Counted from the first letter of the stretch, positions 46,035-64,000 are shown. The stretch: DNA of 64,000 bases from Kiloniellales bacterium (GCA_028280455.1 JANQLT010000157.1:28215-92214), one strand, 5' to 3'. Notes: a model not told the origin generated them from the letters alone. Made by a program: numbers and translations.

Positions 46035-46084
46035 CGCGAAGCGACGCCGCTGGAGCCAACGCACGCCGACAGCAAGGAGCGACG

Positions 46085-46760: not shown

Positions 46761-46801
46761 TGACGTCGGAGGATCGGGGATCGGCGCTGGGGCCGTCTCG
46801 C

Positions 46802-47521
46802 TCAGCCGTTGGCGACCTTCTTCGGGGCCGGGTCGTCGACGGTCTCGACCGGGTCGCGCAGCACGTAGCCGCGGCCCCAGACCGTCTCGATGTAGTTGTC
46901 GCCGCCGGTCGCCGCCGCGAGCTTCTTGCGCAGCTTGCAGACGAAGACGTCGATGATCTTGAGCTCCGGCTCGTCCATGCCGCCGTAGAGATGGTTCAGG
47001 AACATCTCCTTGGTCAGCGTCGTGCCCTTGCGCAGGGAGAGCAGCTCGAGGATGCCGTATTCCTTGCCGGTCAGGTGCAGCGGCTGGCTCTCCACCTCGA
47101 CCGTACGCGTATCGAGGTTAACCTTGAGCTTGCCGGTCTCGATGATCGAGTCCGAGTGGCCCTTGGCGCGGCGGACGATCGCCTGGATCCGGGCGACCAG
47201 CTCACGCCGGTCGAACGGCTTGGTGAGATAGTCGTCGGCGCCGAAGCCGAGGCCCTTGATCTTGTCGTCCAGGCCCGAGAGGCCGGAGAGGATCAGGATC
47301 GGCGTCTTGACCCTTGCGGCCCGCAGGCGGCGCAGGACCTCGTAGCCGTCGATGTCCGGCAGCATGAGATCGAGGACGATGATGTCGTAGTCGTAGAGCT
47401 TGCCGATCTCGAGGCCGTCTTCGCCCATGTCGGTCGTGTCGCAGATGTAACCTTCCGACCGGAGCATCATCTCGATGCTCTGGGACGTGGCCGAATCATC
47501 CTCGACGAGTAGTACACGCAT
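46802..47521 (-). CDS. ctrA: Cell-cycle response regulator CtrA
   Basis: OmpR-type regulator with the highly conserved CtrA sequence ([67 protein letters not shown]). Confidence 0.9.
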
Positions 47522-47584
47522 TGAGAAACCCCCAGGTCCTTCTTCGATTCTTCCTCAACGGTTAACCATTTTGGTCCGTGATTG

Positions 47585-47599
47585 TTAATAATCCCTTAG
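47585..47599. promoter_or_regulatory. CtrA-box-like sequence TTAA-N7-TTAG in the ctrA / fliI divergent region
   Basis: TTAATAATCCCTTAG has one mismatch to TTAA-N7-TTAA and lies about 64 nt upstream of the ctrA start. Confidence 0.3.
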
Positions 47600-47734
47600 C
47601 GCCGCCACAAAACTGTCCTAGGCCCTTGCCGTTTTACCGAAGCTTAAGCCTGTCACCAGATACTGGCCGAGCTTCGACGCGCCCAGATAATGACAATGAA
47701 TCGCATACGATTCAACTGCTTATAAGGCGTTCTT

Positions 47735-49120: not shown

Positions 49121-49122
49121 TC

Positions 49123-49554
49123 ATGGCCGCCCTCGATTCCATGGTGCGGGTGCACCGCTGGATGCTCGACGAGAAGCGCCGCAAGCTGGTCGAGCTGGAG
49201 CGCTTCGTCGGCCGGATCCGCGACGAGCTGCTGGCGCTGGACCAACAGATCGAGCGCGAGCGCGAGACCGCCAACCGCTCGCCCTACGAGTCCCTGGCCG
49301 CCTATGCCGCCTTCCACGCGGCCTCGAACGAGCGGCGGCAGAGGCTGGCCAAGACGGTGGAAAACCTGCAGGCGGAGGTCGATTCGGCGCGCGAGGAGGT
49401 CAACGAGGCCTTCCGCGAGCTCAAGGGCTACGAAAGCGCCCGCGAGCGGGCCGCGCAGCGCCAGCGCGACGAGCGGGCCCGGCGCGAGCAGCTCACCCTG
49501 GACGAGACCGCCATCGGCATCTACCGCCGCCGCTCCGGGCCGCGTGCCGGCTAA
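49123..49554 (+). CDS. fliJ: Flagellar export chaperone FliJ-like coiled-coil protein
   Basis: 143-aa charged coiled-coil protein immediately after fliI. The assignment rests on position and composition. Confidence 0.55.
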   Translation: MAALDSMVRVHRWMLDEKRRKLVELERFVGRIRDELLALDQQIERERETANRSPYESLAAYAAFHAASNERRQRLAKTVENLQAEVDSAREEVNEAFRELKGYESARERAAQRQRDERARREQLTLDETAIGIYRRRSGPRAG

Positions 49555-51542: not shown

Positions 51543-52666
51543 TTGATCCCAGCGACCATGACGGGCGTGCAGCTTATCGGCTACGGCGGGCTCGACAAGC
51601 TACAGCTCCGCGACGACCTGCCGACGCCCCAGCCCGGACCGGGCGAGGTCCTGATCCAGGTCTCGGCGGCCGGCATGAACAACACCGACATCAACACCCG
51701 CACCGGCTGGTACAGCCAGACGGTGGAGAGCGGGACCACCGCCGACGGCGGCCAGGGCGGTTTCGGCGTCGAGAGCGGCGGCATGGGCGACTGGGGCGGC
51801 GACATCGCCTTCCCGCGCATCCAGGGCGCCGACGTGGTCGGCCGGATCGTCGCGGTCGGCGCGGGCGTCGCCGAGCAGCGGCTCGGCGAGCGGGTGGTCT
51901 GCGACCCCTACCTGCTCGATCCCGACGACGAGACGGGCCTCGATAGCGCCGGCTTCCTCGGCGCGGCCCATGACGGCGGCTTCGCCCAGTTCACCTGCGT
52001 GCCGGACAGCAACGCCGTCGCCATCCCCGAGGGCGTCGCGGCCTCGGACGCCGAGATCGCCACCTTGCCCTGCTCGGGCGGCACGGCCATGAACATGTAC
52101 CTGATGGCCGGCCTCGAGGCGGGCGACCGCGTCCTGGTGACCGGCGCTTCCGGCGGGGTCGGCAGCTTCCTGGTGCAGATCGCCAAGCATGCCGGCGCCG
52201 AGGTGGTCGGCGTCTGCGGCCGCTCGAAGGCGCAGGCGGTGCGGGATCTCGGCGCCGACGCGGTGGTCGACCGCGCGGCCGAGGATCTGGTCGGCGCGGC
52301 GATGGCGGCGACGGGCGCTCGCCCCTACACGCTGGTCGCCGATGTCGTCGGCGGCCCGCAGTTCGCCCAGTACCTCGCCCTGCTCGCCCGCGGCGGGCGC
52401 TACGTCACCGCCGGAACCGCCGCCGAGGCCCCCGCCCGTGTCGCAAACTGCGCACGCTCTACCTCAAAAGCCTCGCCTTCTTCGGCTCGACGGTCTACCG
52501 CCGGGACGCCTTCCCGGCCTTGTTGCGAATCCTGGCCGAGGGCGGGCTCAAGCCGGCCGTCGAGGCGGTCCGGCCGCTGATGGAGATCCAGGCGGCCCAG
52601 GAGGCCTTCCTGGAGAAGCGCCATGTCGGCAGCTTCGTGCTGGAGCCGCCGCCGCTCGGTCAGTGA
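51543..52666 (+). pseudogene. Zn-independent quinone oxidoreductase / MDR-family dehydrogenase with a frameshift near 52445-52448
   Basis: Frame 1 is MDR-like up to ...LLARGGRYVTAG and then turns into low-complexity sequence. The conserved C-terminus (LRTLYLKSLAFFGSTVY...AQEAFLEKRHVGSFVLEP, stop at 52664-66) continues in another frame from 52448. Confidence 0.6.
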
Positions 52667-52677: not shown

Positions 52678-53730
52678 CTAGGGCGCGTCGGCAGGCGGCG
52701 GCCCGGTCGAGCCGCGGACGATCAGCTCGACGTCGAGCGGCGAGGGCGGCACGGCTTCCTCGCCGGCCAGCACCGAGAGCAGGTGGCGGCCGGCGAGCCG
52801 GCCCATCTCGCTCTGTGGCGTGCGCACCGTGGTCAGGCCCGGGGTCATCTGCGCCGCCAGCCAGAAATCGTCGAAGCCGGTGATCGAGACCTCGTCCGGC
52901 ACCTTGAGCCCGAGGGCCTGGGCTTCGAAGAGCGCGCCGTAGGCGAAGGGCTCCGAGCCGCAGATGACGGCGGTCGGGCGGGGCCGCCGGGTCATCAGGA
53001 GACGAAAGGCCTCGCGCCCTTCGGTCGAGCCGAAGGGCCGCTCGAGGACCAGGGATTCGTCCAGGGTGAGACCCTGCTCGGCGAGGGCCGAGCGGGTGCC
53101 GGCGATGCGCGCCGCCGCCCGGTCGTTGTCCTTGACGAAGCCCGAGATGACGCCGATGCGGCTATGGCCCATGTCCAGGAGGTGTCGTGCCGCGCGACGG
53201 GCGGCTTCGGCGTTGTCGAAGCCGATACAGGGCCGCTCGCCGTCGCTCTCGGAGATCCAGATCAGCACGTAGGGCACGCCGTTGCGCTCGATCAGGCGGT
53301 AGACCGAGTCGTCGCGGATGCCGCCGACCAGCACCAGGGCATCGATGCCGCTGGTCAGCAGGTTCCGGACATGGTGCTGCTCTCGTTCCAGGTCGTAGCC
53401 GTAGGAGGCCACGACCAGCGTGTAGCCGGCCTCGCCGACCTCCTGTTGCAGGGCCTCCAGGGTGCGGCCGAACAGCGTGGTGTCGAGGATCGGGAAGATC
53501 GCGCCGATCATCCGCGAGCGCCGGGAGGCGAGGGAGCGGGCGCCGCCGTGGGGCACGTAGTCGAGCAGGCGGATCGCCGCCTCGACCTTGCTCTTCAACG
53601 CCGGCCGGACCAGGTCCGGGCTGTTCAGGCAGCGCGAGACCGTGGCCGGCGAGACCCCGGCGTGGCGCGCCACCTCTTCCAGGGTCGCGCCGGTTTTGGC
53701 GCGGTTCTTGAAAGCGCCTTCAGGCGCCAT
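52678..53730 (-). CDS. LacI family transcriptional regulator
   Basis: HTH ATLEEVARHAGVSPATVSRCLN plus a periplasmic-binding-protein-like effector domain. Confidence 0.9.
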   Translation of the reverse strand: MAPEGAFKNRAKTGATLEEVARHAGVSPATVSRCLNSPDLVRPALKSKVEAAIRLLDYVPHGGARSLASRRSRMIGAIFPILDTTLFGRTLEALQQEVGEAGYTLVVASYGYDLEREQHHVRNLLTSGIDALVLVGGIRDDSVYRLIERNGVPYVLIWISESDGERPCIGFDNAEAARRAARHLLDMGHSRIGVISGFVKDNDRAAARIAGTRSALAEQGLTLDESLVLERPFGSTEGREAFRLLMTRRPRPTAVICGSEPFAYGALFEAQALGLKVPDEVSITGFDDFWLAAQMTPGLTTVRTPQSEMGRLAGRHLLSVLAGEEAVPPSPLDVELIVRGSTGPPPADAP

Positions 53731-53870
53731 GGCGCGCTCTAGCCATGGTCCTGACCCCGTCGTATGGAGCCGATCAGGTGCATTCGGCGGAGAATAGCAC
53801 AGAGATCTGCCGTGTCAGGCCCTGGAATCTCCAGGCACTTGACTCCCTAGGGTAAGCAATGCTCTAGTCA

Positions 53871-53886
53871 TTGAAAGCGCTTTCAA
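53871..53886. promoter_or_regulatory. LacI-family operator, perfect 16-bp palindrome TTGAAAGCGCTTTCAA
   Basis: Matches the generic LacI/GalR operator pattern (TGNAANCGNTTNCA). It lies between the divergent LacI gene and the aminotransferase gene, 69 nt upstream of the latter. Confidence 0.7.
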
Positions 53887-53954
53887 GGCGCGAACCCACC
53901 GGCGCGGCCAAATGGGCCGGGCATGCGGGCCGGTGAAGGCAGGGACGCAAGACG

Positions 53955-55205
53955 ATGGCGACGATCTCTCTGGACGATCGGGCGACGGGCCCGTCCGTGC
54001 GGCCGAACCGGACGGTCTTCGCCGGCGACCTCTCCGCGCCGGAGCCGATCCCGGAAGCGGGCATCGAGGCGGCCCTGCGCCTGATGCGCGACGGCCGGCT
54101 GTTCCGCTACGGCGAGGACCGCAGCGGCCTGCCCGAGGCGGCGCTCCTGGAAGAGGAGTATGCGGCCTACATGGGCCGCAAGTACTGCGTCGCCATCAAC
54201 TCCGGCGGCTGCGCCCTGTTCATCGCCCTGCGCGCGGCCGGCGTCGAGCCCGGCGACGCGGTCCTGGTCAATGCCTTCACCCTGGCGCCGGTGCCGGGGG
54301 CCATCGCCCACGCCGGCGCGAAGCCGGTGCTGGTCGACATCGATGACCGCTACGTCATCGACCTGGAGGACCTGGACCGCAAGGCAGAGGAGAGCGGCGC
54401 CAAGGTCCTGATGCTGTCCTACATGCGCGGCCACATCCCGGACATGGACGCGCTGATGGCGCTCTGCGCGCGCCGCGGCCTGACCGTGATCGAGGACTGC
54501 GCCCACACCATGGGCGCCCGCTGGGACGGCCGGCTGAGCGGCAGCTTCGGCGCCGTCGCCTGCTTCAGCACCCAGACCTTCAAGCACATCAACTCCGGCG
54601 AGGGCGGCCTGCTGGTCACCGACGACGAGGACATCGCCGCCAAGGCGATCCTGCTCAGCGGCAGCTACATGCTCTACGCCCAGCACCGGGCCCGGCCGGA
54701 CATGGTGGTCTTCGAGCGGCACCGCTTCACGACGCCGAACTGCTCGATGCGCATGTCGGCCCTGGTCGCCTCGCTGCTGCGCCCGCAGGTCGCCGAGATC
54801 GAAGAGCGCAACGAGCGCTGGCGGACGATCCACGCCCGGCTCGCGCCCCTGGTCGACGCCATCGACCACATCGCGGTGCCGGCGCGGCCGGCGGCCGAGG
54901 CCTTCGTGCCCTCGTCGCTGCAGTTCTCGCTGGTCGATCTGGAGGACGCCCGGGCCGAGCGCTTCGTCGCCGCGGCCAACGCGCACGGCGTCCACGTCAA
55001 GTGGTTCGGGACCGAGGGCCCGGTCGGCTTCACCAGCCGCCACGACCACTGGCGCTACATCGAGACGACGGACGCGGTGCCCAACGCCGACCGCGTCCTG
55101 CACGGCCTCTGCGACATTCGGCTGCCGCTCTGGCTGACCGACGAGGACTGCGAGACCATCGCGGCCGTGCTGCGCGAGGCCATGGCGGACGCCCTGGCGG
55201 CATGA
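53955..55205 (+). CDS. DegT/DnrJ/EryC1/StrS-family PLP-dependent aminotransferase
   Basis: Fold-type I blocks (INSGGCALFIALRA, VIEDCAHTMGA) and a Lys-containing FSTQTFKHINSGEGG. Confidence 0.75.
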   Translation: MATISLDDRATGPSVRPNRTVFAGDLSAPEPIPEAGIEAALRLMRDGRLFRYGEDRSGLPEAALLEEEYAAYMGRKYCVAINSGGCALFIALRAAGVEPGDAVLVNAFTLAPVPGAIAHAGAKPVLVDIDDRYVIDLEDLDRKAEESGAKVLMLSYMRGHIPDMDALMALCARRGLTVIEDCAHTMGARWDGRLSGSFGAVACFSTQTFKHINSGEGGLLVTDDEDIAAKAILLSGSYMLYAQHRARPDMVVFERHRFTTPNCSMRMSALVASLLRPQVAEIEERNERWRTIHARLAPLVDAIDHIAVPARPAAEAFVPSSLQFSLVDLEDARAERFVAAANAHGVHVKWFGTEGPVGFTSRHDHWRYIETTDAVPNADRVLHGLCDIRLPLWLTDEDCETIAAVLREAMADALAA

Positions 55206-55245
55206 GCGCTCGCAGGCACCCGGAGCCGACGCGGGGGATCGGCGC

Positions 55246-57663
55246 GTGAAGAGCCATGCCCGCGCAGTGGTGATCGGCGGCGGCATCGGCGGCTGCAGCA
55301 CCCTCTATCACCTGACCCGCGAGGGCTGGAGCGACGTGGTCCTGGTCGAGCGCGACGAGCTGACCTCGGGCTCGACCTGGCACGCTGCCGCGCAGGTCAC
55401 GCAGTTCGGCGCCAACCAGGTCATGGTCGGCCTCAAGCGGCACAGCGTGCAGCTCTACCGCGAGCTGGCCGACGACCCGGAGCATCCGATCAACTACCAC
55501 ATCACCGGCGGCATCCGCCTGGCCCACAGCGACGACCATATCGACGGCTACAAGCACTTCATCGGCATGGCCCGGGGCATGGGCGTCGAGCTCGAATTGC
55601 TGTCGGCCGAGGAGTGCGGCCGGCGCCACCCGCTGATGGCGACCCACGGCCTCAAGGGCGGCCTCTGGGACCCGCTCGACGGCGACATCGACCCCAGCCA
55701 GCTCACCCAGGCGCTGGCCCGGCGGGCCCGGCAGGCCGGCGCCGAGATCTATCGCTTCAACCCGGTCGAGGCGATCGAGCGGCGGCCGGGCGGCGAGTGG
55801 CTGGTGCGCACCAGGAACGGCGACATCCTCTGCGAGGTCGTCGTCAACGCCACCGGCTACCGGGTCAACGAAGTCGGCCGCATGCTCGGCGTCGAGCACC
55901 CCGTCGTCTCCATGGAGCACCAGTACTTCCTGACCGAGCCGATCGCCGCCCTGGAAGAGATGGACAAGCGGGTGCCGATCATCCGCGACCCGGGCGACGA
56001 CTTCTACAGCCGCCAGGAGAAGCACGGCCTGCTGGTCGGCATCTACGAGCAGGGCTGCAAGACCTGGGGGCTCGACGGCATCGACCCGAGCTTCACCATG
56101 GAGCTCTGCCCGAACGACCTCGACCGCCTGCTCGACAACATGGAGCGGGTCTTCGAGCGGCTGCCGGCGCTGACCGAGACCGGCATCACCCGCACCATCA
56201 ACGGGCCGATCACCTACTCGGCCGACGGCCTGCCGCTGATCGGCAAGATCCCGGGCCTGCGCAACGCCTACGCCTGCCTCGGCCTGCGCGCCGGCATCGG
56301 CGAGGGCGGCGGCCACGGCAAGCTGCTGGCCGAGATCATCGTCCACGGCGAGGCCGAGTGGGACACCTGGCCGCTCGACCCGCGGCGCTTCACCGGCCAC
56401 TGCAACACCGAGTACACGGCCCTGAAGGCGATCGAGGACTACCGGAACGAGTTCCGCTTCCATATGCCGCACGAGCATCGGCCGGCCGGGCGGCCGGCCA
56501 AGACCACGCCGCTCTACGGCCACCTGGCGGAAGCCGGCGCCGCGTTCGGCACGGTCGCCGGCTGGGAGCGGGCGCTGTTCTTCAAGCCGAGCCCGGACTT
56601 CGAGGACCGGCACAGCTTCCGTTTCACGCCGACGGAGGCGGTCGTCGCCGAGGAGATCGCGGCGGTGCAGGAGCGGGTCGGCCTGATGGAGGTCTCCGGC
56701 TTCAACCGCTTCGAGATCGCCGGCCCGGGCGCGGCCGACTGGCTCGACGGCCTGGTCTGCGGGCCGATCCCCAAGAGCGTCGGCCGGGTCGGCCTGAGCT
56801 ACTTCCTGACCGAGCAGGGCCACGTGCTGGGCGAGGCCACCCTCGCCAAGCTCGGCGAGGACCGCTTCTGGTACGGCTCGGCGGCGGCGGCCGAGTACCA
56901 CGACTGGGACTGGCTGAGCGAGCGCCTGCCGGCGGAGGGCATCGCGCTCAGCAACCTGACCGCCTCGCATAGCATCCTGGTCGTCGCCGGGCCGCGCTCC
57001 CGGGATCTCCTGGCGCAGGTCGCGCCGCGGAGCGACTGGTCGAACGAAGCCTTTCCCTGGCTGACCCTGCAGCCGGTCTTCATCGGCTCGGCGCGGGCCC
57101 TGGCCATGCGGGTCAGCTTCTCCGGCGAGCTGGCCTGGGAGCTGCACCTGCCCAACGAGCAGCTCGTCCTCGCCTACCGGGCCCTGGAAGCCGTGGGCGC
57201 CGAGTTCGGCCTGCGGCCCTTCGGGCTCTACGCCACCGAGTCCATGCGCCTGGAGAAGGGCTTCCGCCACTGGAAGGCCGACCTGGTGACGGACTACTCG
57301 GTCCTCGAGTCCGCGCTCGACCGCTTCCTCAAGCTCGACAAGCCGGGCTTCGTCGGCCGCGAGGCCGTCCTGGTTGAGCAGCAGCGCGGGGCGCGGAACC
57401 GCTTCGTCTCCCTGGTGGTCGACTGCGACGTCGGGCCCGCCCACAGCGGCGACCCGATCTACAGCAACGGCAGCCAGGTCGGCACCGTCACCTCCGGTGG
57501 CTACGGCCACCGCGTGCGCAAGAACATCGCCATGGGCTTCGTCGAGACCGTCCACGCGGCGCCGGGCAGCGGTCTCGAGATCGGCATCATCGGCGAGCGC
57601 TATCCGGCGCAGGTCGTCGAGGCGCCGCTCTACGATCCCGAGCACGCGCGGATGAGGGCCTAG
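55246..57663 (+). CDS. FAD-dependent oxidase fused to a GcvT-like folate-binding domain (dimethylglycine/sarcosine dehydrogenase family)
   Basis: GTG start. Dinucleotide fold VVIGGGIGGCS; 805 aa with a C-terminal aminomethyltransferase-like domain (FNRFEIAGPGAADWLD, GYGHRVRKNIAMGFV). Confidence 0.85.
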   Translation: MKSHARAVVIGGGIGGCSTLYHLTREGWSDVVLVERDELTSGSTWHAAAQVTQFGANQVMVGLKRHSVQLYRELADDPEHPINYHITGGIRLAHSDDHIDGYKHFIGMARGMGVELELLSAEECGRRHPLMATHGLKGGLWDPLDGDIDPSQLTQALARRARQAGAEIYRFNPVEAIERRPGGEWLVRTRNGDILCEVVVNATGYRVNEVGRMLGVEHPVVSMEHQYFLTEPIAALEEMDKRVPIIRDPGDDFYSRQEKHGLLVGIYEQGCKTWGLDGIDPSFTMELCPNDLDRLLDNMERVFERLPALTETGITRTINGPITYSADGLPLIGKIPGLRNAYACLGLRAGIGEGGGHGKLLAEIIVHGEAEWDTWPLDPRRFTGHCNTEYTALKAIEDYRNEFRFHMPHEHRPAGRPAKTTPLYGHLAEAGAAFGTVAGWERALFFKPSPDFEDRHSFRFTPTEAVVAEEIAAVQERVGLMEVSGFNRFEIAGPGAADWLDGLVCGPIPKSVGRVGLSYFLTEQGHVLGEATLAKLGEDRFWYGSAAAAEYHDWDWLSERLPAEGIALSNLTASHSILVVAGPRSRDLLAQVAPRSDWSNEAFPWLTLQPVFIGSARALAMRVSFSGELAWELHLPNEQLVLAYRALEAVGAEFGLRPFGLYATESMRLEKGFRHWKADLVTDYSVLESALDRFLKLDKPGFVGREAVLVEQQRGARNRFVSLVVDCDVGPAHSGDPIYSNGSQVGTVTSGGYGHRVRKNIAMGFVETVHAAPGSGLEIGIIGERYPAQVVEAPLYDPEHARMRA

Positions 57664-57668
57664 AGGCC

Positions 57669-58706
57669 ATGGCCGCCGACCACAGCGCCGCCGAGCTGCG
57701 CCGCAACGAAGAGGTCTTCCTGCAGGGCCTCTACTGGTGGGGGATCCCGACGCTGTTCCGCTGCCCCGCCGCCGACTCGCCGGCCGACTGCGACATCGCC
57801 CTGGTCGGCGTGCCGCACAGCACCGGCAACGGCACGACGGAGCGCGATCAGCACCTGGGGCCGCGGGCGGTGCGCGACATCTCGGCCCTCGGCCGGCGCG
57901 TCCACATGAAGTACCAGCTCGACCCCTGGACCAGCGCGCGGATTCACGATCTGGGCGACGTGCCCCTGCCGGAAGGCAACAACAACGAGAAGTCGATCGA
58001 GCACATCACCGAGTTCTATCGCGTCCTCGACGAGGCCGGCACGCCGGCGGTCTCGATCGGCGGCGACCACTCGATCACCGGCGGCATCCTGCAGGCCTTC
58101 GGCGGCCGCGGCTCGAGGCTCTCCGGCGGCGAGAAGGTCTCCCTGCTGCACTTCGACGCCCACACCGACGCCTTCCAGAACATGGAGCACTTCCTCGGCG
58201 CGCGGAAATCGGCGGCCCACTGGGCGGCCTATCTGGTGACCGACGAGCACGTCGACGCCTCGCGCAGCGTGCAGGTCGGCATCCGCGGCAATCCCCGGAC
58301 CCTGGATTGGCTGCAGCCGAGCTACGACCTGGGCTACGAGGTCGTCACGATGGACCGCTACGCCGAGCTCGGCCCGGCGCGCTGCATCGAGATCATCCGC
58401 GAGCGGCTCGAGGGGCGTCCGGTCTACGTGACCTTCGATCTGGATTGCCTCGACCCGACCGTCGCGCCCGGCGTCGCCAACATCGAGGCGGGCAGCACCG
58501 GCTTCACCGCGGCGCAGGCCATCGAGCTGATCCAGGCGGCGCGCGGCCTGAACGTCATCGGCGGCGACGTGGTCTGCCTGATGCCGACGCGCGACAACCC
58601 GAACCGCATCACATCCATGGTGGCCAACGCCGTCATGTTCGAGATCGTCTGCCTGATCGCCGACCGCCTGCGCCAAGGCGGCGGCGATGGGGCGGCGGCA
58701 AGTTGA
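57669..58706 (+). CDS. Ureohydrolase (agmatinase / guanidino-acid hydrolase family)
   Basis: Mn-binding motifs SIGGDHSITGG, LLHFDAHTD and VTFDLDCLDP. Confidence 0.85.
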   Translation: MAADHSAAELRRNEEVFLQGLYWWGIPTLFRCPAADSPADCDIALVGVPHSTGNGTTERDQHLGPRAVRDISALGRRVHMKYQLDPWTSARIHDLGDVPLPEGNNNEKSIEHITEFYRVLDEAGTPAVSIGGDHSITGGILQAFGGRGSRLSGGEKVSLLHFDAHTDAFQNMEHFLGARKSAAHWAAYLVTDEHVDASRSVQVGIRGNPRTLDWLQPSYDLGYEVVTMDRYAELGPARCIEIIRERLEGRPVYVTFDLDCLDPTVAPGVANIEAGSTGFTAAQAIELIQAARGLNVIGGDVVCLMPTRDNPNRITSMVANAVMFEIVCLIADRLRQGGGDGAAAS

Positions 58707-58818
58707 ACGAGAGAACAGGGAGCTTGAACCGAGAATCAACAAGTTAAAGCGGCTCACGGGGCCGCCGAGTCGAAAGCAAGCAATGACGCGTGAAACCCAG
58801 AACAAGGGAGCGAGTTCG

Positions 58819-59778
58819 ATGAGAACCTCAGCAAAGTTGATTTCCACCTGTGTCGCCGCCCTCATGGCGTCGGCCTTGAGCGCGCAGGCCGCCGATGTCG
58901 TCATCGGCGTGCCCAACTGGCCGTCGGTCAATGCCGAGGCGCACATTCTGAAGGTCATCATGGAAGACAACCTCGGCCTCGAGGTCGAGCTTCAGAACGG
59001 CACCAACCCGGTCATCTTCGAGGCCATGGACAAGGGCAGCATGCACGTCCATCCCGAGGTCTGGCTGCCGAACCAGCAAAATCTGCACGACAAGTTCGTC
59101 AAGACCAACGACACGGTTCGGATGAACCCGAACGGGGCCGAAGCCTTCCAGGGCATGTGCGTCGCCAAGCATACCGCCGACGCCCTCGGCATCTCCTCGA
59201 TCACCGATCTCTCCGATCCCGACATGGCCGCCAACTTCGATTCCAACGGCGACGGCAAGGGCGAGATCTTCATCGGGGCGCCCGGCTGGGCCTCGACCAT
59301 CGTCGAGAAGATCCGGGCCAAGAGCTACGGCTACGACGAGGTCCTGGAGCTGACCGAGATGGACGAGTCCGTGGCCTACGGCAACCTCGACTCGGCGATC
59401 AGCGCCAACAAGCACTGGGTCGGCTTCTGCTACACGCCGCACCATCTCTTCAACCTGCATGAGCTGGTCGTGCTCGACGAGCCGGCGCACAACCCCGACA
59501 CCTGGGAGGTGATCCAGCCGACCGACGATCCGGACTGGCTCGCCAAGTCCAAGGCGGGGAGCGCCTGGTCCTCCGCCTACCTGCACATCCACTACTCGGC
59601 GGCGCTCGAGAAGGCGCAGCCGCAGGCGGCGGCTCTGCTGGCCAACATGGCCTTCACCACCGAGCAGATCAGTGGCATGAGCTATGCGCTGGTGGTCGAG
59701 GACGCTGACCCGCTCGAGTACGCCAACCAGTGGGTGATCGACAACGCCGACCTCGTGGCGGAGTGGCTCACCAAGTAG
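58819..59778 (+). CDS. Glycine betaine/proline-betaine-type ABC transporter binding protein (ProX-like)
   Basis: Start at the ATG at 58819, preceded by AAGGGAG. Signal peptide ending SAQA and an OpuAC-type sequence (VIGVPNWPSVNAEAHIL, HVHPEVWLPNQ). Confidence 0.8.
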   Translation: MRTSAKLISTCVAALMASALSAQAADVVIGVPNWPSVNAEAHILKVIMEDNLGLEVELQNGTNPVIFEAMDKGSMHVHPEVWLPNQQNLHDKFVKTNDTVRMNPNGAEAFQGMCVAKHTADALGISSITDLSDPDMAANFDSNGDGKGEIFIGAPGWASTIVEKIRAKSYGYDEVLELTEMDESVAYGNLDSAISANKHWVGFCYTPHHLFNLHELVVLDEPAHNPDTWEVIQPTDDPDWLAKSKAGSAWSSAYLHIHYSAALEKAQPQAAALLANMAFTTEQISGMSYALVVEDADPLEYANQWVIDNADLVAEWLTK

Positions 59779-59904
59779 CAGGACCGGACCCGCGGGCGCC
59801 GGCTCCATAGCGAGCCGGCGCCCCGGCCCTCCGGCCTCTCGATTCGACAAGAAAAACAGGGGCGTCGCCCGCGGCCTCGGGGGTGTCCCGGACAGGGGGT
59901 TGCA

Positions 59905-60963
59905 ATGGACCAGCCGGTATCGGACGCGGTCATAGACCTGCAAGGCGTCTGGAAGATCTTCGGCGACAAGTCGGCGGAGGCGATGACGGCGATCAAGAAC
60001 GAGGGCCTGGGCAAGGCCGAGGTCTTGCAGCAGTACGGCTGCGTCGTCGGGATCGCCGATGTCTCCTTCTCCATTCCGCGCGGCGAGGTCTTCTGCATCA
60101 TGGGCCTCTCCGGCAGCGGCAAATCGACGCTGGTGCGCCACCTCAATCGGCTGATCGAGCCGACCTCGGGCACCATCCGCGTGCTCGGCGAGGACGTCAT
60201 GGGCCTGCCGGACGACCAGCTTCGCGCCATGCGGGCGAAGAAGATCGGCATGGTCTTCCAGCACATGGCGCTGATGCCCCATCGCAGCGTGCGCGACAAC
60301 GTGGCTTTCCCCCTGGAAGTGCAGGGCGAGCCGAAGATCAAGCGCTGGGAGGTGTCGCAGCACGCGCTCTCCCTGGTCAATCTCGACGGCTTCGAGGACC
60401 ACATGCCCCGGCAGCTCTCCGGCGGCATGCAGCAGCGCGTCGGCCTGGCCCGCGCGCTGGCCTCCGATCCCGACGTGCTGCTGATGGACGAGCCCTTCAG
60501 CGCCCTGGACCCGCTGATCCGGCGGCAGCTCCAGACGCAGTTCCTGGAGCTCTCCGAGAAGCTGCACAAGACCACGGTCTTCATCACCCACGATCTCGAC
60601 GAGGCGATCCGCATGGGCAATCGCATCGCCATCATGAAGGACGGCCGGATCGTCCAGATCGGCACGCCGGAAGAGATCGTCACCCAGCCGGCGGACGACT
60701 ATGTCGCCGACTTCGTGCGCAACATCTCGAGACTGAAGCTGGTCTTCGCCCACACCGTCATGGAGCCGCTCGACAGCTACAAGCCGGCCAACGGCGAGGA
60801 CACCAGCAAGTTCCCCCGCGTGACCGAGGACACCGACCTCGATCACCTGATCGACGTCGCCGTCGAAAGCGACGGGCCGATCATCGTCACGGACGCCGGC
60901 GGCAGCGAGATCGGCATCGTCACCAAGAGCGCGCTGCTCACCGGCATTCAGGGAGGCAAGTAG
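59905..60963 (+). CDS. Glycine betaine/proline-type ABC transporter ATP-binding protein (ProV-like) with C-terminal CBS-like region
   Basis: GLSGSGKST, LSGGMQQRVGLARAL, LLMDEPFSALDP. Confidence 0.9.
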   Translation: MDQPVSDAVIDLQGVWKIFGDKSAEAMTAIKNEGLGKAEVLQQYGCVVGIADVSFSIPRGEVFCIMGLSGSGKSTLVRHLNRLIEPTSGTIRVLGEDVMGLPDDQLRAMRAKKIGMVFQHMALMPHRSVRDNVAFPLEVQGEPKIKRWEVSQHALSLVNLDGFEDHMPRQLSGGMQQRVGLARALASDPDVLLMDEPFSALDPLIRRQLQTQFLELSEKLHKTTVFITHDLDEAIRMGNRIAIMKDGRIVQIGTPEEIVTQPADDYVADFVRNISRLKLVFAHTVMEPLDSYKPANGEDTSKFPRVTEDTDLDHLIDVAVESDGPIIVTDAGGSEIGIVTKSALLTGIQGGK

Positions 60964-62493
60964 ATGGCCAGCGAAGCGACCATGGAAGAAGGCGTCGGCC
61001 TGGAGCACTCCGTCGGTGAGTTCGTCGGCCGGGGCGAGACCTACTACTCGCAAGCCTTCACCAAGATCCAGTCGACCCTGGGTTTCGCCTATACCTTCAA
61101 CTGGGCGGCGGCGCTCCTCGGGCCGATCTGGGCGGCGGCGCGCAACCTCTGGGGCTTCTTCTGGATCTTCTCGATCCTCGAGCTGATCGCCCTGGTGCAG
61201 CTCGGCCGCGGCCTCTGGGGCGACCTCGGGGCCGACGAGCTGGCCAAGGCGGCGCGCCTGAGCGAGAAGGCCGAGGTCATGCGCCAGAAGGCGGAGGAAG
61301 CCGCGGCCGCCCAGCAGGACAACGCCGGCGCGCTGGCCACCGTCGCCGAGAACCTGCAGAAGGCGGCCGAGCAGGCGCAGGTGGCGGCCGATGCGGCGAC
61401 CTCGGGCGCCTTCACCGTCACCCTCATCGGCTTGGCCTTGCTGGTCGTGATCAAGGCGATCGAGGGCTTCTACGCCAACGTCCATTACGAGCACCGCTAC
61501 ACGGCCTGGCGGGCCGACCCGGGCATCGGCGCCGGCTTCTCCATGCCCAACCTGCTGCTCGGGCTGGCGCTGCTCGCGGCCATGGTGCCCTTGACGCTCT
61601 ACCGCTTCACGGCCAGCCAGCCGGCCGATCTGGTGACCGAGTTCCCGGTCGACAAGGCCTTCTACAACGGCGTCGCCACCTGGCTGGACGAGTCCTTCTT
61701 CGACCGCATCGCCAACGCCTGGTCGGGCCTGTTCGACGGCATCACCGCGGCGATCCGCAGCCTGCTCGACGGGCTCGAGCTGATCCTGGTCGGCACGCCC
61801 TGGATGGTCTCGCTGGTGGTCATCGTCGCCATCGCCTGGCGCCTGGCCGGCGTGCGCGTCGCCATCTTCACGACGGCGGGCCTGCTCTATCTCGGCTTCT
61901 TCGGCTTCTGGGAGAAGAGCATGATCACCGTGGCCCTGCTCGGCGCCGCGGCCCTGCTGTGCATCTTGATCGGCATTCCGCTCGGCATCTGGTGCGGCAA
62001 GAACAACACGGTCTACACGATCGTCCGGCCGATCCTGGACTTCATGCAGACCATGCCGGCCTTCGTCTACCTGATCCCGGTGATCGCCTTCTTCGGCACC
62101 GGCAAGCCGCCCGGCATCCTGGCCACGGTGATCTTCGGCATGCCGCCGGTGGTGCGCTTGACGGCGCTCGGCATCAAGGGGGTGCCGGAGAACATCAAGG
62201 AGGCGGCGATCGCCTTCGGTTGCAGCCGGCGCAAGCTGCTGTTCGACGTCGAGCTGCCGCTGGCCACGCCGAGCATCATGACCGGCGTCAACCAGACCAT
62301 CCTGATGTGCCTCTCGATGGTCGTCATCGCCTCGCTGATCGGCGCCGAGGGGCTCGGCAGCGAGGTGCTGCTGGCGCTGCAGTACGCGGCCAAGGGGCAG
62401 GGCCTCCTGGCCGGCCTGGCCATCCTGTTCTGCGCCATGATCATCGACCGCATCGTGCAGGGCCGCTTCCAGAAAGCCGAAGACGGTCGCTAG
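60964..62493 (+). CDS. Betaine-type ABC transporter permease (ProW-like) with a ~250-aa N-terminal extension
   Basis: The C-terminal half is a BPD-transporter permease. The N-terminal part has a DUF2628-like motif (YYSQAF...FNWAAALLGPIWAAARNLW) and an Ala/Glu/Gln-rich helix. Confidence 0.85.
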   Translation: MASEATMEEGVGLEHSVGEFVGRGETYYSQAFTKIQSTLGFAYTFNWAAALLGPIWAAARNLWGFFWIFSILELIALVQLGRGLWGDLGADELAKAARLSEKAEVMRQKAEEAAAAQQDNAGALATVAENLQKAAEQAQVAADAATSGAFTVTLIGLALLVVIKAIEGFYANVHYEHRYTAWRADPGIGAGFSMPNLLLGLALLAAMVPLTLYRFTASQPADLVTEFPVDKAFYNGVATWLDESFFDRIANAWSGLFDGITAAIRSLLDGLELILVGTPWMVSLVVIVAIAWRLAGVRVAIFTTAGLLYLGFFGFWEKSMITVALLGAAALLCILIGIPLGIWCGKNNTVYTIVRPILDFMQTMPAFVYLIPVIAFFGTGKPPGILATVIFGMPPVVRLTALGIKGVPENIKEAAIAFGCSRRKLLFDVELPLATPSIMTGVNQTILMCLSMVVIASLIGAEGLGSEVLLALQYAAKGQGLLAGLAILFCAMIIDRIVQGRFQKAEDGR

Positions 62494-62507
62494 CCCTGTA
62501 CCCCAGC

Positions 62508-62537
62508 GGGCCGGGCGGCTTCCTCCCCGCCCGGCCC
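62508..62537 (+). other. GC-rich stem-loop between the permease and methyltransferase genes
   Basis: GGGCCGGGCGG-8 nt-CCGCCCGGCCC, followed 9 nt later by ATTTT. Confidence 0.35.
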
Positions 62538-62555
62538 GTCCGAGGATTTTCCTGG

Positions 62556-64000
62556 ATGGTGTCGGAGACCTCACGCATTCGACGCGGCGGTGGGCGCGAG
62601 GCGAGGCGCGCCAGCCGCACGTCGGGCGAAGCGGAAGCGGATCCCTGTCCGCCCGGCCAGCGCGGCGGCGCCTATCGGCCGCTCGACGAGGCCGGCCTGC
62701 AGGCGATCTACGGGACCGCGCTGAAGATCCTCGACGAGATCGGCATGGGCGAGGCGCCGCCCGCCGTCGTCGAGCGGGCCGAGGCGCGCGGCGCCCGCCT
62801 GAACGGTCTCGGTCGGCTCTGCTTCCCGCCCGACCTGGTCGAGGCGGTGATCGAGCAGGCGGCCAAGCGCTTCGTCTTCCACGGCCGCGCGCCGGGCCAG
62901 GACATCGAGGTCGGCGGCGAGCGGGTCTACTTCGGCACCGGCGGCGCGGCGGTGCAGACGCTCGACCTGGACAGCGGTCTCTATAGGCCCTCGACCTTGC
63001 AGGACCTCTACGACTTCACGCGGCTGATCGACCAGTTGCGCAACGTCGCCTGGTTCACGCGCTGCTGCGTCGCCACTGACGTCGAGGACCCCTTCGACCT
63101 CGACGTCAACACCGCCTATGCCTTGCTGGTCGGCACCACGAAGCCGGTCGGCACCAGCTTCACCCTGGGCGCGCACGTCGCGCCGATCGTCGAGATGTTC
63201 GACTGGGCGCTCGGCGGCCCGGGCCGCTTTCGCGAGCGGCCCTTCTGCAAGGCGCACATCAGCCCGGTGATCTCGCCGCTGCGCTACGGCGAGGACGCCA
63301 CCGACGTGGTCGAAGCCTGCGTTCAGCACGGCGTGCCGATCAACTGCATCATCGCGGCGCAGTCGGGCGCGACCGCCCCGGCGACCCTGGCCGGCATGCT
63401 GGCCCAGACGACGGCGGAGACCCTGGCGGGCCTGATCCTGGTGCACCTCTACGGGCCCGGCCACCCGACGGTCTTCTCCAACTGGCCCCTGGTGATCGAC
63501 CTGCGCAGCGGCGCCTTCTCGGGCGGCGGCGGCGAGAGCGCGCTGCTGAACGCCGCCTCCGGGCAGATCGCCAACTGGCTCGGCCTGCCCGGCGGCGTCG
63601 CCTGCTCGATGGCCGACGCCAAGGCGGTCGACGCCCAGATGGGCTCGGAGAAGGCGCTCTCCGCGCTCGCCGCCGGCCTGGCCGGCGCCAACATGGTCTA
63701 CGAGTCCTCGGGCATGACGGCGAGCCTGCTCGGCGCCTCCTTCGAGGCCTTCGTGCTGGACGACGAGATGCTGAGCCACGTCTACCGGACCATGCGCGGC
63801 ATTGAGGTCGACGAGGAGACGCTGGGCTTTGAGGCGATCCGCGAGACGGTGAGCGGCGAGGGCCACTTCCTCGGCTCGGCCCACACCATGGCCGCCATGC
63901 AGCGCGACTACTTCTACCCGGCTCTGGCCGACCGCGAGACGCCGGCCACCTGGGCCGAGCAGGGCGCCCCCGACATCTGGCGCCAAGCGCGTGACAAGGC
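62556..64000 (+). CDS. Trimethylamine methyltransferase (MttB) superfamily protein, non-pyrrolysine type; 3' end outside the window
   Basis: This gene is not in the ORF track because it has no stop in the window. My translation from the ATG at 62556 is open for 481 codons. MttB-family blocks: RRGGGREARRA N-terminus, ALKILDEIGM, YFGTGGAAV, NCIIAAQSGATAPATLAG, FSGGGGESALLNAA, FVLDDEML, GHFLGSAHT. There is no in-frame TAG. Confidence 0.8.
   Translation, partial: MVSETSRIRRGGGREARRASRTSGEAEADPCPPGQRGGAYRPLDEAGLQAIYGTALKILDEIGMGEAPPAVVERAEARGARLNGLGRLCFPPDLVEAVIEQAAKRFVFHGRAPGQDIEVGGERVYFGTGGAAVQTLDLDSGLYRPSTLQDLYDFTRLIDQLRNVAWFTRCCVATDVEDPFDLDVNTAYALLVGTTKPVGTSFTLGAHVAPIVEMFDWALGGPGRFRERPFCKAHISPVISPLRYGEDATDVVEACVQHGVPINCIIAAQSGATAPATLAGMLAQTTAETLAGLILVHLYGPGHPTVFSNWPLVIDLRSGAFSGGGGESALLNAASGQIANWLGLPGGVACSMADAKAVDAQMGSEKALSALAAGLAGANMVYESSGMTASLLGASFEAFVLDDEMLSHVYRTMRGIEVDEETLGFEAIRETVSGEGHFLGSAHTMAAMQRDYFYPALADRETPATWAEQGAPDIWRQARDK

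Follow-up and report, generated by a model that had tools for sequence, protein, structure and literature searches.

The 64,000-nucleotide stretch of Kiloniellales DNA analyzed here (the window) carries, in a marine-type alphaproteobacterial host, a LacI-type repressor gene and, divergent from it, a string of seven genes that runs to the window end. The locus raises the question of whether this string is one unit and, if so, what kind of compound it acts on. The reading that we favor, at a probability of about 0.4, is that it is a LacI-repressed operon of three merged modules that would act on an N-methylated zwitterion, most probably of the aminosulfonate class. We compared the window with the orthologous MttB loci of 80 species and counted linkage of CuyC-like and HpsN genes within 10 kb.

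Gene content and layout of the string

Searches with Pfam and NCBIfam profiles confirm the gene content and order given in the original prediction for the whole string and for the LacI gene that diverges from it. The features are listed below.

52678-53730, minus strand: LacI/GalR-family repressor gene, divergent from the string (PF00356, Peripla_BP_1/3)
53708-53723, no strand: O2, operator-like but imperfect site that overlaps lacI at its 5' end (TTGAAAGCGCCTTCAG; 1 mismatch in the 14-bp core)
53839-53845, plus strand: TTGACTC, -35-like promoter element, invariant in 9 aligned intergenic regions
53871-53886, no strand: O1, perfect 16-bp LacI-type palindrome TTGAAAGCGCTTTCAA, single copy in the window, core conserved
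53955-55205, plus strand: DegT/DnrJ/EryC1-family PLP enzyme, CuyC-like (PF01041)
55246-57663, plus strand: DMGDH-like FAD-/folate-dependent oxidoreductase, putative N-demethylating, 805 aa (DAO, FAO_M, GCV_T, GCV_T_C)
57664-57711, no strand: junction, site of 1,165 extra bp in a close relative (alignment to L096)
57669-58706, plus strand: arginase-family guanidino-acid hydrolase, GpuA/GbuA-like (PF00491)
58783-59778, plus strand: OpuAC-family periplasmic binding protein, ProX-like (PF04069); start at 58783 or 58819 likely
59905-60963, plus strand: ProV-type ABC ATPase (PF00005, TIGR01186)
60964-62493, plus strand: ProW-type ABC permease, 509 aa, with a long N-terminal extension (PF00528)
62556-64000, plus strand: non-Pyl MttB-superfamily methyltransferase (PF06253), 481 of 525 codons up to the window end

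All of the string genes are on the plus strand, separated by gaps of 40, 5, ~76, 126, 0, and 62 bp, in that order. It is conceivable that they are not one unit but the product of a recent rearrangement, with unrelated gene roles and internal promoters: module order varies widely among species, the 76- and 126-bp gaps could hold promoters, and an opposite-strand LysR gene splits the string in a close relative. However, the same partners recur in ~25 species in several gene orders, spacing is 0 to 5 bp at two junctions, no plus-strand terminator-like site was found within the string, and the operator is conserved. We therefore consider separate units very improbable.

LacI repressor and operators

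The hallmarks of a LacI-operator system are present, namely, a repressor with a helix-turn-helix and an effector domain (PF00356, 56.8 bits; Peripla_BP_3, 110.7 bits; Peripla_BP_1, 84.5 bits) and a palindrome with a central CG near a putative promoter. The perfect 16-bp palindrome that had been reported ahead of the string is unique in the window, in which 0.07 matches at ≤3 mismatches are expected by chance. Its core, TGAAAGCGCTTTCA, occurs once per locus in exactly 9 of the 80 orthologous loci, always in the intergenic region between lacI and the first gene. These 9 loci are the ones that encode an orthologous LacI (54 to 57% identity to that of the window), and the core is absent from those of the 81 loci compared that have no orthologous LacI. 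A close relative has the core as well, in 3 contigs. Alignment of the 9 intergenic regions, which come from different genera, reveals the invariant TTGACTC, located 26 bp upstream of O1 in the window and 26 to 45 bp upstream in the other loci. Because the core is confined to loci with an orthologous LacI and an invariant TTGACTC is nearby, the O1 palindrome is more than a chance occurrence, and because TTGACTC ends 26 bp before it, O1 would cover the -10/+1 region. An O2-like site (2 to 3 mismatches) is present at the start of lacI, 154 to 196 bp from O1, in all 9 of the other LacI loci and may function in autoregulation or looping.

The MttB-family methyltransferase and its DMGDH-like partner

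The original prediction described the last gene as a non-Pyl MttB homologue with no in-frame amber codon in its 481 visible codons. There is no stop codon of any kind, and the open reading frame is intact to the full length of 525 aa (P0135). The visible part scores 356 bits on PF06253 and covers profile positions 1 to 466 of 500. Pyrrolysine-type MttB is excluded by the lack of a stop in 525 aa, with Met352 aligned to the Pyl (X) of 7XCL, and by a TIGR02369 score (309.7 bits) that stays below the cut-off of 525. Although the non-Pyl placement is upheld, assignment to MtgB is not. The protein is 29 to 31% identical to MtgB, to Sinorhizobium meliloti MtgB (4YYC), and to Pyl-MttB alike. The betaine-binding residues of MtgB are Y97, R312, H348, and F356 (D. 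hafniense numbering), and a carboxylate-binding Arg is conserved in all characterized members of the MttB superfamily that have acidic substrates (PMC13080624). The window protein has G130, G347, E383, and L391 at the four positions, which is 0 of 4 kept, and 42 orthologues have the same four without exception. In contrast, the true MtgB-type genes of S. meliloti (4YYC) and Paracoccus keep the Y, R, and H and adjoin genes for a B12-binding protein, DUF1638, MetF2, a methyl-THF:cobalamin methyltransferase, and a RamA-like protein. In anaerobes, too, the genes for the cognate corrinoid protein, methyl-THF methyltransferase, and reductive activase are neighbors of the MtgB gene. A tblastn search with S. 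meliloti queries for MtgC, MtgD, RamA-like, DUF1638, MetF2, and Bmt found none of these in the window or in ~90 related loci. MtgB identity is ruled out by the absence of the four betaine-binding residues, the invariance of the replacements throughout the clade, and the lack of adjoining corrinoid genes.

The corrinoid protein, MtgA-like, and RamA-like genes that were expected past the window end are not borne out. In a relative with 86 to 88% identity, MttB is followed by a ThrC-like gene and then by acdR/acdS-like genes, and a LysR gene follows MttB in 42 of the 80 species. In aerobic marine bacteria, corrinoid partners are unlinked from the methyltransferase and shared (PMC12478193). The window protein is like the MtgBCD system of Ruegeria pomeroyi and Phaeobacter inhibens (PMC12478193; bioRxiv 10.64898/2025.12.19.695462) in that it is a PF06253 non-Pyl methyltransferase of an aerobic alphaproteobacterium, for which corrinoid/pterin partners need not be linked and several paralogues with open specificity are expected per genome. 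It is unlike MtgB-type proteins in its low identity to them (29 to 30%), in its betaine-binding positions, and in the setting of its subfamily, which lies beside a DMGDH-like gene and LysR and never next to corrinoid genes in the loci compared. We conclude from the alignments and gene neighborhoods that this protein represents a distinct, uncharacterized, DMGDH-linked branch of the MttB family.

The DMGDH-like oxidase contains all four domains of its family (DAO, FAO_M, the GcvT folate domain, and the GcvT C-terminal barrel). Its best match among solved structures is human DMGDH (5L46; 542 bits), but at 38 to 42% identity human DMGDH is about as distant as the bacterial paralogues, and no NCBIfam equivalog passes. 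In 68 of the 80 species, the MttB orthologue has a DMGDH-like orthologue as its neighbor, and the divergence of the oxidase tracks that of MttB. The same pairing occurs in paralogous clades in S. meliloti, R. pomeroyi (SPOA0308-0313), and Roseovarius. Two of these have a second DMGDH-like gene, and the set would then suffice for three demethylations. The uncharacterized R. pomeroyi megaplasmid cluster SPOA0313-SPOA0308 follows a similar plan, in that its MttB is from the same subfamily (40% identity) and is accompanied by LysR, a PLP enzyme, and DMGDH-like oxidases. It differs in that the oxidases are two, the PLP enzyme is a class III aminotransferase, an Xsc-like TPP enzyme closes the cluster, and there is neither a transporter nor a hydrolase.

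The CuyC-like enzyme and linkage to sulfonate genes

The first gene of the string had been called a DegT-type aminotransferase. The family is correct (197 bits on PF01041), but a sugar-type aminotransferase is probably not, as no NCBIfam sugar-aminotransferase equivalog is above its cut-off and the protein appears to group with CuyC, the DegT-family cysteinolate racemase whose biochemistry is described in PMC12814064. CuyC membership is defined there as PF01041 within a similarity cluster of ~45% identity/E ≤1e-110. A DegT protein encoded on a Leisingera plasmid shares 51% identity with the window protein (E of 3e-135); this reference is assigned by its hpsN-cuyB-X-cuyA context alone. Orthologues with 71 to 74% identity adjoin HpsN in five Pelagibius loci, and a second CuyC-like subclade is colocalized with HpsN, CuyB, or CuyA in loci L004, L008, and L037; there is no HpsN, CuyB, or CuyA within 5 ORFs of the window gene. 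We regard the DegT protein as CuyC-like and as a putative cysteinolate-type racemase or possibly an aminotransferase.

A CuyC-like gene is located ≤10 kb from the MttB orthologue in 24 of the 80 species, and HpsN is in 11 of the 80. The HpsN proteins score 549 bits against CpHpsN and 234 bits against HisD, and every copy has the GRY[A/S]H motif, which is specific for sulfonates. In at least 13 species, the immediate neighbor of the DMGDH-like gene, in the same orientation, is HpsN and/or the CuyC-like gene; the gap at this junction is 6 bp in L004. On the Leisingera plasmid, the order is sulfate exporter-hpsN-cuyB-DegT-cuyA-regulator-DMGDH-like, followed by MttB, LysR, and a betaine-type ABC transporter. 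Sulfatases flank the MttB/DMGDH-like pair in Pelagibius, in Roseobacter litoralis, and in L065. The Xsc-like gene of the R. pomeroyi paralogous cluster is a further sign of a sulfonate link. In sister genera, the orthologous LacI operon, with the same operator, contains HpsN. No hpsN, cuyA, cuyB, xsc, or sulfite exporter gene is present in the window cluster or in the whole 64 kb.

The D-cysteinolate cluster hpsN-cuyC-cuyA-cuyB of Bilophila and Desulfovibrio litoralis (PMC12814064) is matched by the DegT-family CuyC-type gene, by the adjoining HpsN in sister genera, and by the full cuy set that abuts the MttB/DMGDH-like pair on the Leisingera plasmid. It is unlike the window, which lacks hpsN, cuyA, and cuyB, and the published cluster has no MttB, DMGDH-like gene, OpuAC-type importer, or LacI regulator. 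The related genomes tie the string to genes for sulfonate (cysteinolate) breakdown rather than to the glycine betaine system. The most probable substrate class would be sulfobetaines, namely, N-methylated aminosulfonates akin to D-cysteinolate or taurine; the literature searched contains no report of N-methylated cysteinolate.

An alternative is that the string is part of an osmolyte island centered on glycine betaine, in which MttB would produce dimethylglycine from glycine betaine, to be turned into sarcosine by the DMGDH-like enzyme, while the CuyC-like gene, transporter, and hydrolase would serve other osmolytes (cysteinolate, guanidino acids) and be merely co-located or co-regulated. Among methylated osmolytes, glycine betaine predominates, and demethylation genes often cluster (PMC12478193). 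The match of the oxidase to true DMGDH fits such a role. Most species have the pair without CuyC-like or HpsN genes. In 56 of the 80, the 10 kb around it contain none that is CuyC-like, so that, as a point against the aminosulfonate reading, a commoner compound may be its substrate. On some plasmids, the pair is bordered by carnitine-type genes and by GbdR-like GlxA regulators (the latter on those of Mesorhizobium and Ruegeria), which also counts against that reading and hints at carboxylate betaines. However, MttB has lost the carboxylate-binding Arg (PMC13080624) along with the other betaine-binding residues. S. meliloti and Leisingera also have an MtgB-type gene, which in S. meliloti, as in Paracoccus, is beside the corrinoid machinery; the DMGDH-like gene is in operons with HpsN and/or CuyC-like genes; and a sarcosine oxidase was not observed among the genes of these loci. 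We consider a glycine betaine role unlikely.

The ABC importer

The importer is a complete ProU/OpuA-type set, with an OpuAC binding protein, a ProV-type ATPase, and a ProW-type permease in one unit. The ProX-like protein scores 178 bits on PF04069 and ≤45 bits against any solved binding protein, including ProX, OpuAC, and 4XZ6. Its ORF opens at 58687, and a signal-peptide-like N terminus follows Met33/Met45. ProV scores 349.9 bits on TIGR01186 (betaine/proline/choline subfamily), above the cut-off of 326.6, and ProW scores 280 bits on the ChoW model and 255 bits on the ProW model, both below the cut-offs. The OpuAC fold, the ProV score, and the ProW permease are shared with the ProU, OpuA, and ChoXWV importers, but the binding protein is unlike their solved members in sequence and travels with CuyC-like and HpsN genes; the ProX-like gene co-occurs with a CuyC-like gene in 18 of 21 ProX-bearing loci.

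Since the best scores of ProV and ProW are on choline-transporter models, a nonacidic quaternary amine has to be considered, for example, choline from choline-O-sulfate, with MttB acting on choline and the oxidase on methyl-ethanolamines. The Arg loss, together with Glu383 where MtgB has His, points to a carboxylate-free substrate, the motif at the Pyl position (VACS-M) is like that of true MttB (VAGS-Pyl), and a choline-sulfatase-like gene with Choline_sulf_C follows the triad in 5 Pelagibius species. Nevertheless, the importer proteins do not reach the ChoX, ProX, ChoV, or ChoW equivalog cut-offs, choline already has the universal BetA/BetB route, ethanolamine genes are absent, and the HpsN motif is specific for sulfonates. 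A nonacidic amine such as choline is improbable in our view.

The guanidino-acid hydrolase cassette

The hydrolase scores 200 bits on PF00491 and has the GGDH, DAHxD, and DxDxxDP metal motifs in an alignment with 3NIP. It is a ureohydrolase, as originally proposed, and belongs to the arginase family, but it does not score as an agmatinase (SpeB), as it falls below the cut-offs of both TIGR01230 (108 versus 174 bits) and NF002564 (168 versus 302 bits). The nearest solved structures are Pseudomonas aeruginosa guanidinopropionase (3NIP, 170 bits) and guanidinobutyrase (3NIO, 134 bits), which suggests a guanidino-acid type nearest to GpuA/GbuA. P. aeruginosa has these hydrolases in regulator-hydrolase units, gpuR-gpuA and gbuR-gbuA. 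In relatives, the hydrolase is similarly paired with a divergent LysR; unlike these units, the putative hydrolase of the window has its LysR deleted and is embedded in the LacI operon. Alignment with the close relative L096 matches window positions 54006 to 57663 and 57712 to 60536, while L096 positions 4290 to 5454 have no window counterpart. These extra 1,165 bp are the LysR gene and the LysR/hydrolase intergenic region. In this relative, the hydrolase, behind its own LysR, heads a ProXVW-MttB unit. Elsewhere, orthologues are accompanied by a LysR of their own or by a different ABC importer; the hydrolase is near the MttB/DMGDH-like pair in 5 of the 80 species and missing from 75 of the 80 loci. 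We conclude that it is a portable LysR-plus-hydrolase cassette and that deletion of LysR in the window fused the hydrolase to the LacI operon. The idea that hydrolase and demethylases were designed as one pathway does not survive this comparison, in which the combination is not ancestral.

A convergent pathway to an omega-amino acid would give the hydrolase a direct role: beta-alanine betaine or gamma-butyrobetaine would be fully demethylated, 3-guanidinopropionate or 4-guanidinobutyrate would be hydrolyzed, and the common product would be transaminated by the DegT protein. The similarity of the hydrolase to GpuA and then GbuA fits this, as does its position in the close relative. Some of the 5 species have further aminotransferases (of class V in L041) or a DDAH-like gene next to it, and the R. 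pomeroyi paralogous cluster combines MttB and two DMGDH-like genes with a class III aminotransferase. On the other hand, MttB has no carboxylate-binding Arg, the DegT protein appears to group with CuyC and not with omega-transaminases, the cassette is portable and found in unrelated contexts, and HpsN with its sulfonate motif is left unexplained. We regard this pathway as quite unlikely.

Proposed pathway

The original view of a co-directional, catabolic string under a LacI operator that serves an imported N-methylated compound is supported by these comparisons. The string is, as far as can be judged from sequence, a repressor-controlled set for import and methyl stripping of a charged small nutrient. 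We infer the substrate and every catalytic step from the protein families, operator conservation, linkages, and residue signatures described above. In the aminosulfonate reading, when the effector is absent, LacI would occupy O1 over the promoter, and perhaps O2 as well, and block transcription. When it is present, ProXVW would import the N-methylated zwitterion. MttB, assumed to be corrinoid dependent, would start by taking one methyl group off the quaternary nitrogen and handing it to an MtgC-like corrinoid protein encoded elsewhere, from which an MtgD-like enzyme would pass it to tetrahydrofolate. The DMGDH-like enzyme would oxidize off the remaining N-methyl group(s) as 5,10-methylene-tetrahydrofolate, and the CuyC-like enzyme would racemize (or transaminate) the primary amine product before oxidation and lysis downstream. 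The hydrolase would convert a guanidino analogue to an amine and urea.

The first module would consist of the LacI-controlled CuyC-like PLP enzyme and the ProXVW importer, to which sister genera add the sulfonate dehydrogenase HpsN; the second would be the demethylation pair of MttB-family methyltransferase and DMGDH-like oxidase; and the third would be the guanidino-acid hydrolase cassette minus its own LysR. In related genomes, these three modules are found separately.

Organization and operator of the gene string

The region 53871-64000 was predicted from the sequence to hold a string of co-directional genes behind a LacI-type palindrome, and both elements are borne out. The G+C content of the window is ~70%. 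In 52678-64000, seven plus-strand genes follow a LacI gene on the minus strand:

52678-53730, minus strand, LacI-family regulator
53871-53886, TTGAAAGCGCTTTCAA, perfect 16-bp operator palindrome (O1)
First gene, plus strand, DegT/PF01041 PLP enzyme (CuyC-like)
Second gene, plus strand, DAO+FAO_M+GCV_T+GCV_T_C oxidoreductase, 805 amino acids (DMGDH-like)
Third gene, 57669-58706, plus strand, arginase-family hydrolase
Fourth gene, plus strand, OpuAC binding protein (ProX)
Fifth gene, plus strand, ProV ATPase
Sixth gene, plus strand, ProW permease
Seventh gene, plus strand, PF06253 MttB-family protein, running past the window end

The intergenic gaps along the string are, in order, 40, 5, ~76, 126, 0, and 62 bp. 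No terminator-like sites were found on the plus strand of the string, and an Rfam search of the window for riboswitches and other known RNAs gave no matches.

O1 is the sole perfect copy of the palindrome within the window, and with up to 3 mismatches allowed, 0.07 matches are expected by chance. A scan of one genome per species yielded 80 loci with an MttB orthologue at 60 to 77% identity. Among these 80, the 14-bp operator core occurs once in each of nine loci, which are exactly those that encode an orthologous LacI (54 to 57% identity), and it always lies between lacI and the first operon gene. The core is also present in three contigs of a close relative. The only invariant parts of the aligned lacI/first-gene intergenic regions are the palindrome and an upstream TTGACTC, which is 26 bp from O1 in the window. 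We infer that TTGACTC is a −35 element, which would place the operator over the −10/+1 region. A second, imperfect operator copy overlaps the 5' end of lacI in 10 of 10 LacI-bearing loci, 154 to 196 bp from the perfect site, which suggests autoregulation or DNA looping. Its positions in the window and in the loci of related genomes (L numbers) are as follows:

Window 53708-53723
L010 6235
L016 6220
L030 13611
L031 13606
L034 6239
L036 6234
L046 6214
L074 3977
L080 6155

An MttB subfamily linked to a DMGDH-like oxidase

Based on alignments to solved structures and annotated homologues, the MttB proteins form three groups: Pyl-MttB (structure 7XCL), the MtgB type, and a third group that contains the window protein and its orthologues (the window clade). 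S. meliloti 4YYC and a Paracoccus protein, together with their gene context, served as proxies for R. pomeroyi SPO2108/SPO2134 and P. inhibens MtgB1. 4YYC is 45% identical to D. hafniense MtgB, with Y97, R312, and H348 common to both. Its gene neighbors encode a cobalamin-binding protein, DUF1638, MetF2, a methyl-THF:cobalamin methyltransferase, and a RamA-like protein, with bmt nearby, and the Paracoccus orthologue (82% identity) has the same neighbors. Since both genes adjoin corrinoid machinery, we conclude that the MtgB type is the MtgB of the published MtgBCD system.

The third group is only 24 to 31% identical to Pyl-MttB and the MtgB type. It comprises the window clade, which shares 63 to 69% identity with plasmid-borne copies from Roseobacter litoralis, Ruegeria, Leisingera, and Mesorhizobium, and paralogous clades (S. 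meliloti, R. pomeroyi SPOA0312, and Roseovarius) at 40 to 45% identity. The four MtgB positions defined as binding glycine betaine (PMC13080624) are G130, G347, E383, and L391 in the window MttB, and its residue at the Pyl position is Met352; none of the five varies across 42 MttB orthologues. The structure model of the window MttB is moderate (pLDDT 71.5) and was left out of pocket inference. Aerobic marine bacteria have up to seven MttB-family paralogues, with genetic support for the glycine-betaine one only (PMC12478193). A model with glycine betaine as the substrate of the operon is a less probable rival.

Members of the third group always have a DMGDH-like gene and a LysR gene alongside; at two of the paralogous loci, there are two such oxidase genes. 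LysR is the gene after MttB or is divergent from MttB in 42 of the 80 species. The divergence of the oxidases parallels that of MttB, with 57 to 66% identity within a clade and 30 to 42% between clades. Each MttB/DMGDH-like pair would thus carry out the sequential N-demethylation of one particular quaternary amine. The locus yields a simple rule, that each such MttB has its own DMGDH-like oxidase and LysR, and it sets a large, widespread subfamily apart from MtgB in sequence, in residues, and in gene context. One scan recovered the subfamily from 80 species, and cultured strains of Roseobacter, Ruegeria, Leisingera, and Mesorhizobium have it on plasmids. None of the component families is new, and two recent papers account for parts of the picture. 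The searched literature contains no description of an MttB subfamily that is tied to DMGDH and separate from MtgB, of the repeated joining of this subfamily with CuyC, HpsN, and an OpuAC-type importer, or of the conserved LacI operator.

S. meliloti Ak57 (L092, 9373-11704) has a further DMGDH-like gene, missing from the annotation, in the space between MttB and the annotated oxidase. It is split into DAO and GcvT parts in different frames and is therefore a probable pseudogene in this strain. The homarine operon was also checked and is unrelated. One locus of the scan (L024, WNWL01000005.1) is labelled Oceanobacillus sp. HTM 045; it is on a 528-kb contig with 67.8% G+C over the 21 kb examined, and its cluster is alphaproteobacterial in type, with an MttB 71% identical to that of the window. 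The record is probably mislabelled or contaminated.

Linkage to sulfonate catabolism and the candidate substrate

CuyC, a DegT-family D-cysteinolate racemase that acts with HpsN (L-cysteinolate dehydrogenase), CuyB, and CuyA, has homologues most commonly in marine Alphaproteobacteria (PMC12814064). A Leisingera plasmid has an hpsN-cuyB-X-cuyA cluster whose DegT protein shares 51% identity (E = 3e-135) with that of the window. This cluster includes a sulfate exporter and directly abuts a DMGDH-like gene, MttB, LysR, and a betaine-type ABC transporter. In Pelagibius, the DegT orthologues (71 to 74%) are in an hpsN-DegT-proXVW operon behind the same LacI operator. Against C. pinatubonensis HpsN, the HisD-like protein of this operon reaches 549 bits, compared with 234 bits against true HisD, and the HpsN-specific sulfonate-recognition motif GRY[A/S]H (PMC11382572) is present in 13 of 13 HisD-like (HpsN) proteins of related loci. 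Within 10 kb of MttB, a CuyC-like gene is found in 24 of the 80 species, HpsN in 11, and ProX in 21; the CuyC-like gene is likewise present in 18 of these 21. The DMGDH-like gene directly adjoins HpsN and/or the CuyC-like gene, in the same orientation, in at least 13 species. Sulfatases flank the MttB/DMGDH pair in Pelagibius, R. litoralis, and locus L065.

The best-supported reading of these gene contents is an operon under repressor control that would import a methylated zwitterion and remove all of its N-methyl groups, with the PLP enzyme acting on the amine that is left. Gene linkage favors an N-methylated aminosulfonate as the substrate. Against this, hpsN, cuyA, cuyB, and xsc are absent from the window cluster, the searched literature contains no report of N-methyl cysteinolate, and most of the 80 species have the MttB/DMGDH pair without CuyC-like or HpsN genes. 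Some plasmid contexts of the pair hint at carboxylate betaines instead. A choline model is improbable.

On the R. pomeroyi DSS-3 megaplasmid (L093, 8965-19261, about SPOA0313-SPOA0308), a cluster is made up of LysR and, set off from it, MttB, a class III aminotransferase, two DMGDH-like genes, and, at the end, an Xsc-like TPP enzyme. This cluster resembles a full pathway that would start from a trimethylammonio compound, with trimethyltaurine as a candidate, and end in a cleaved aldehyde. Our specific proposal, to which we give a probability of roughly 0.2, is that the DMGDH-linked MttB proteins are sulfobetaine (N-methylated aminosulfonate) methyltransferases. The window clade, with the DMGDH-like oxidase, CuyC, HpsN, and the OpuAC-type importer, would then be a route for an undescribed marine N-methylated D-cysteinolate ("cysteinolate betaine"), and the SPOA0308-0313 paralogue would be the same for trimethyltaurine. 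If so, cobalamin-dependent demethylation in oxic oceans reaches beyond glycine betaine to organosulfur osmolytes. The locus ties the MttB subfamily to the recently solved cysteinolate pathway, and the cultured carriers and the conserved repressor-operator pair make the substrate question directly testable. The answer bears on oceanic cobalamin demand and on nitrogen and sulfur cycling.

On R. litoralis plasmid pRLO149_94 (L088, 1867-8628), two arylsulfatases, a DUF1254 protein, a transporter, and a SUMF1-like fragment are encoded directly upstream of the DMGDH-like/MttB/LysR triad.

The guanidino-acid hydrolase cassette

The third gene was predicted to encode an agmatinase-family ureohydrolase, and subtyping places it in the guanidino-acid hydrolase type. 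Its product scores 170 bits against P. aeruginosa guanidinopropionase (3NIP) and 134 bits against guanidinobutyrase (3NIO), its metal motifs are intact, and it does not reach the cut-offs of the agmatinase equivalog models. Orthologues at ≥70% identity are numerous in other contexts, either beside LysR alone or, in Pelagibius, after a different ABC importer.

In the close relative (L096), the order is lacI (minus), O1, DegT, DMGDH, LysR (minus), hydrolase, and ProX. Compared with L096 4290-5454, window positions 57664-57711 lack a 1,165-bp segment with a 302-amino-acid LysR gene, which in L096 separates the DMGDH-like gene from the hydrolase and runs in the opposite direction. With this extra segment, hydrolase-ProXVW-MttB may be a LysR-controlled unit in the relative. 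The L096 LysR is 64% identical to a LysR that adjoins a hydrolase orthologue elsewhere. The gene order of the relative, the 1,165-bp gap, and the LysR match indicate that a self-contained LysR-hydrolase cassette entered the operon in this lineage and that loss of LysR in the window genome brought the hydrolase under LacI control.

Hydrolase genes are near the MttB/DMGDH pair in 5 of the 80 species. A DDAH-like gene accompanies them in two of these species, and a second arginase-family gene and a class V aminotransferase do so in three:

L013 1249-2121 and L068 1321-2202, DDAH/arginine-deiminase-superfamily gene after ProW, in the two loci with the hydrolase adjoining MttB
L041 16631-19204 (also L042 and L065), two arginase-family genes together, beside a class V aminotransferase and downstream of ProX

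Because of this recurrence, a related substrate theme for the hydrolase and the pair is plausible but unproven. We rate an omega-betaine/guanidino-acid model for the operon below glycine betaine and above choline. A literature search on marine guanidino hydrolases found nothing specific. The gene in L013 and L068 is a second guanidino-modifying enzyme. The L041 genes are 32% and 59% identical to the window hydrolase, and their layout recalls, by analogy, heteromeric ureohydrolases.

The MttB gene end and its downstream neighbors

The concern that the MttB reading frame might be disrupted past the window end is settled by the database record, in which it is an intact protein of 525 amino acids (P0135). 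Exact-protein look-ups with ProW, ProV, and the full MttB yielded no native contig that reaches past the window end, and the hydrolase led only to a 3.6-kb contig. Genes past the window end were therefore read from contigs of a relative with 86 to 88% DNA identity. There, ProW and MttB (524 amino acids) are followed, after a 259-bp gap, by a ThrC-like PLP gene, an AsnC regulator, and an ACC-deaminase-like gene. The original prediction expected corrinoid partners just downstream; this was not upheld, since tblastn with S. meliloti MtgC, MtgD, RamA-like, DUF1638, MetF2, and Bmt found no match in the window or in ~90 related loci. Their absence is no obstacle to function, because R. pomeroyi encodes its corrinoid protein and pterin methyltransferase at unlinked sites and shares both with a split methionine synthase (PMC12478193).

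In two Rhodospirillales genomes, DegT-HpsN-DMGDH has beside it a gene 68% identical to the ThrC-like gene of the relative. The ThrC-like gene, which passes the NCBIfam "threonine synthase" model NF006050, and its counterparts are at:

L084 3899-5140, ThrC-like PLP gene
L004 3610-5055, ThrC-like PLP gene
L008, ThrC-like PLP gene

The ThrC-like gene may be a lyase of the operon's pathway rather than a housekeeping threonine synthase. The downstream PALP gene of the relative (337 amino acids) was considered as CuyA and rejected; it is 36% identical to CuyA-like proteins and paired with an AsnC regulator, and is therefore read as acdS/acdR.

Genes upstream of the region

To the left of the operon are unrelated genes for a Zn-ADH, a peroxiredoxin, fasciclin, FliI/FliJ, a response regulator, and a Liv-type ABC system. 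The Zn-ADH gene (51543-52580) and the preceding peroxiredoxin, fasciclin, and FliI/FliJ genes were considered as operon partners and excluded from the cluster because their linkage is not consistent. At 46802-49554, an OmpR-type response regulator adjoins FliI-like ATPase and FliJ genes, and flagellar export genes thus lie immediately upstream of the catabolic region. G+C falls to 63 to 65% at 36000-48000, compared with ~70% elsewhere in the window. Possibly acquired, this stretch contains the Liv-type ABC system along with a GntR regulator and an amidohydrolase.
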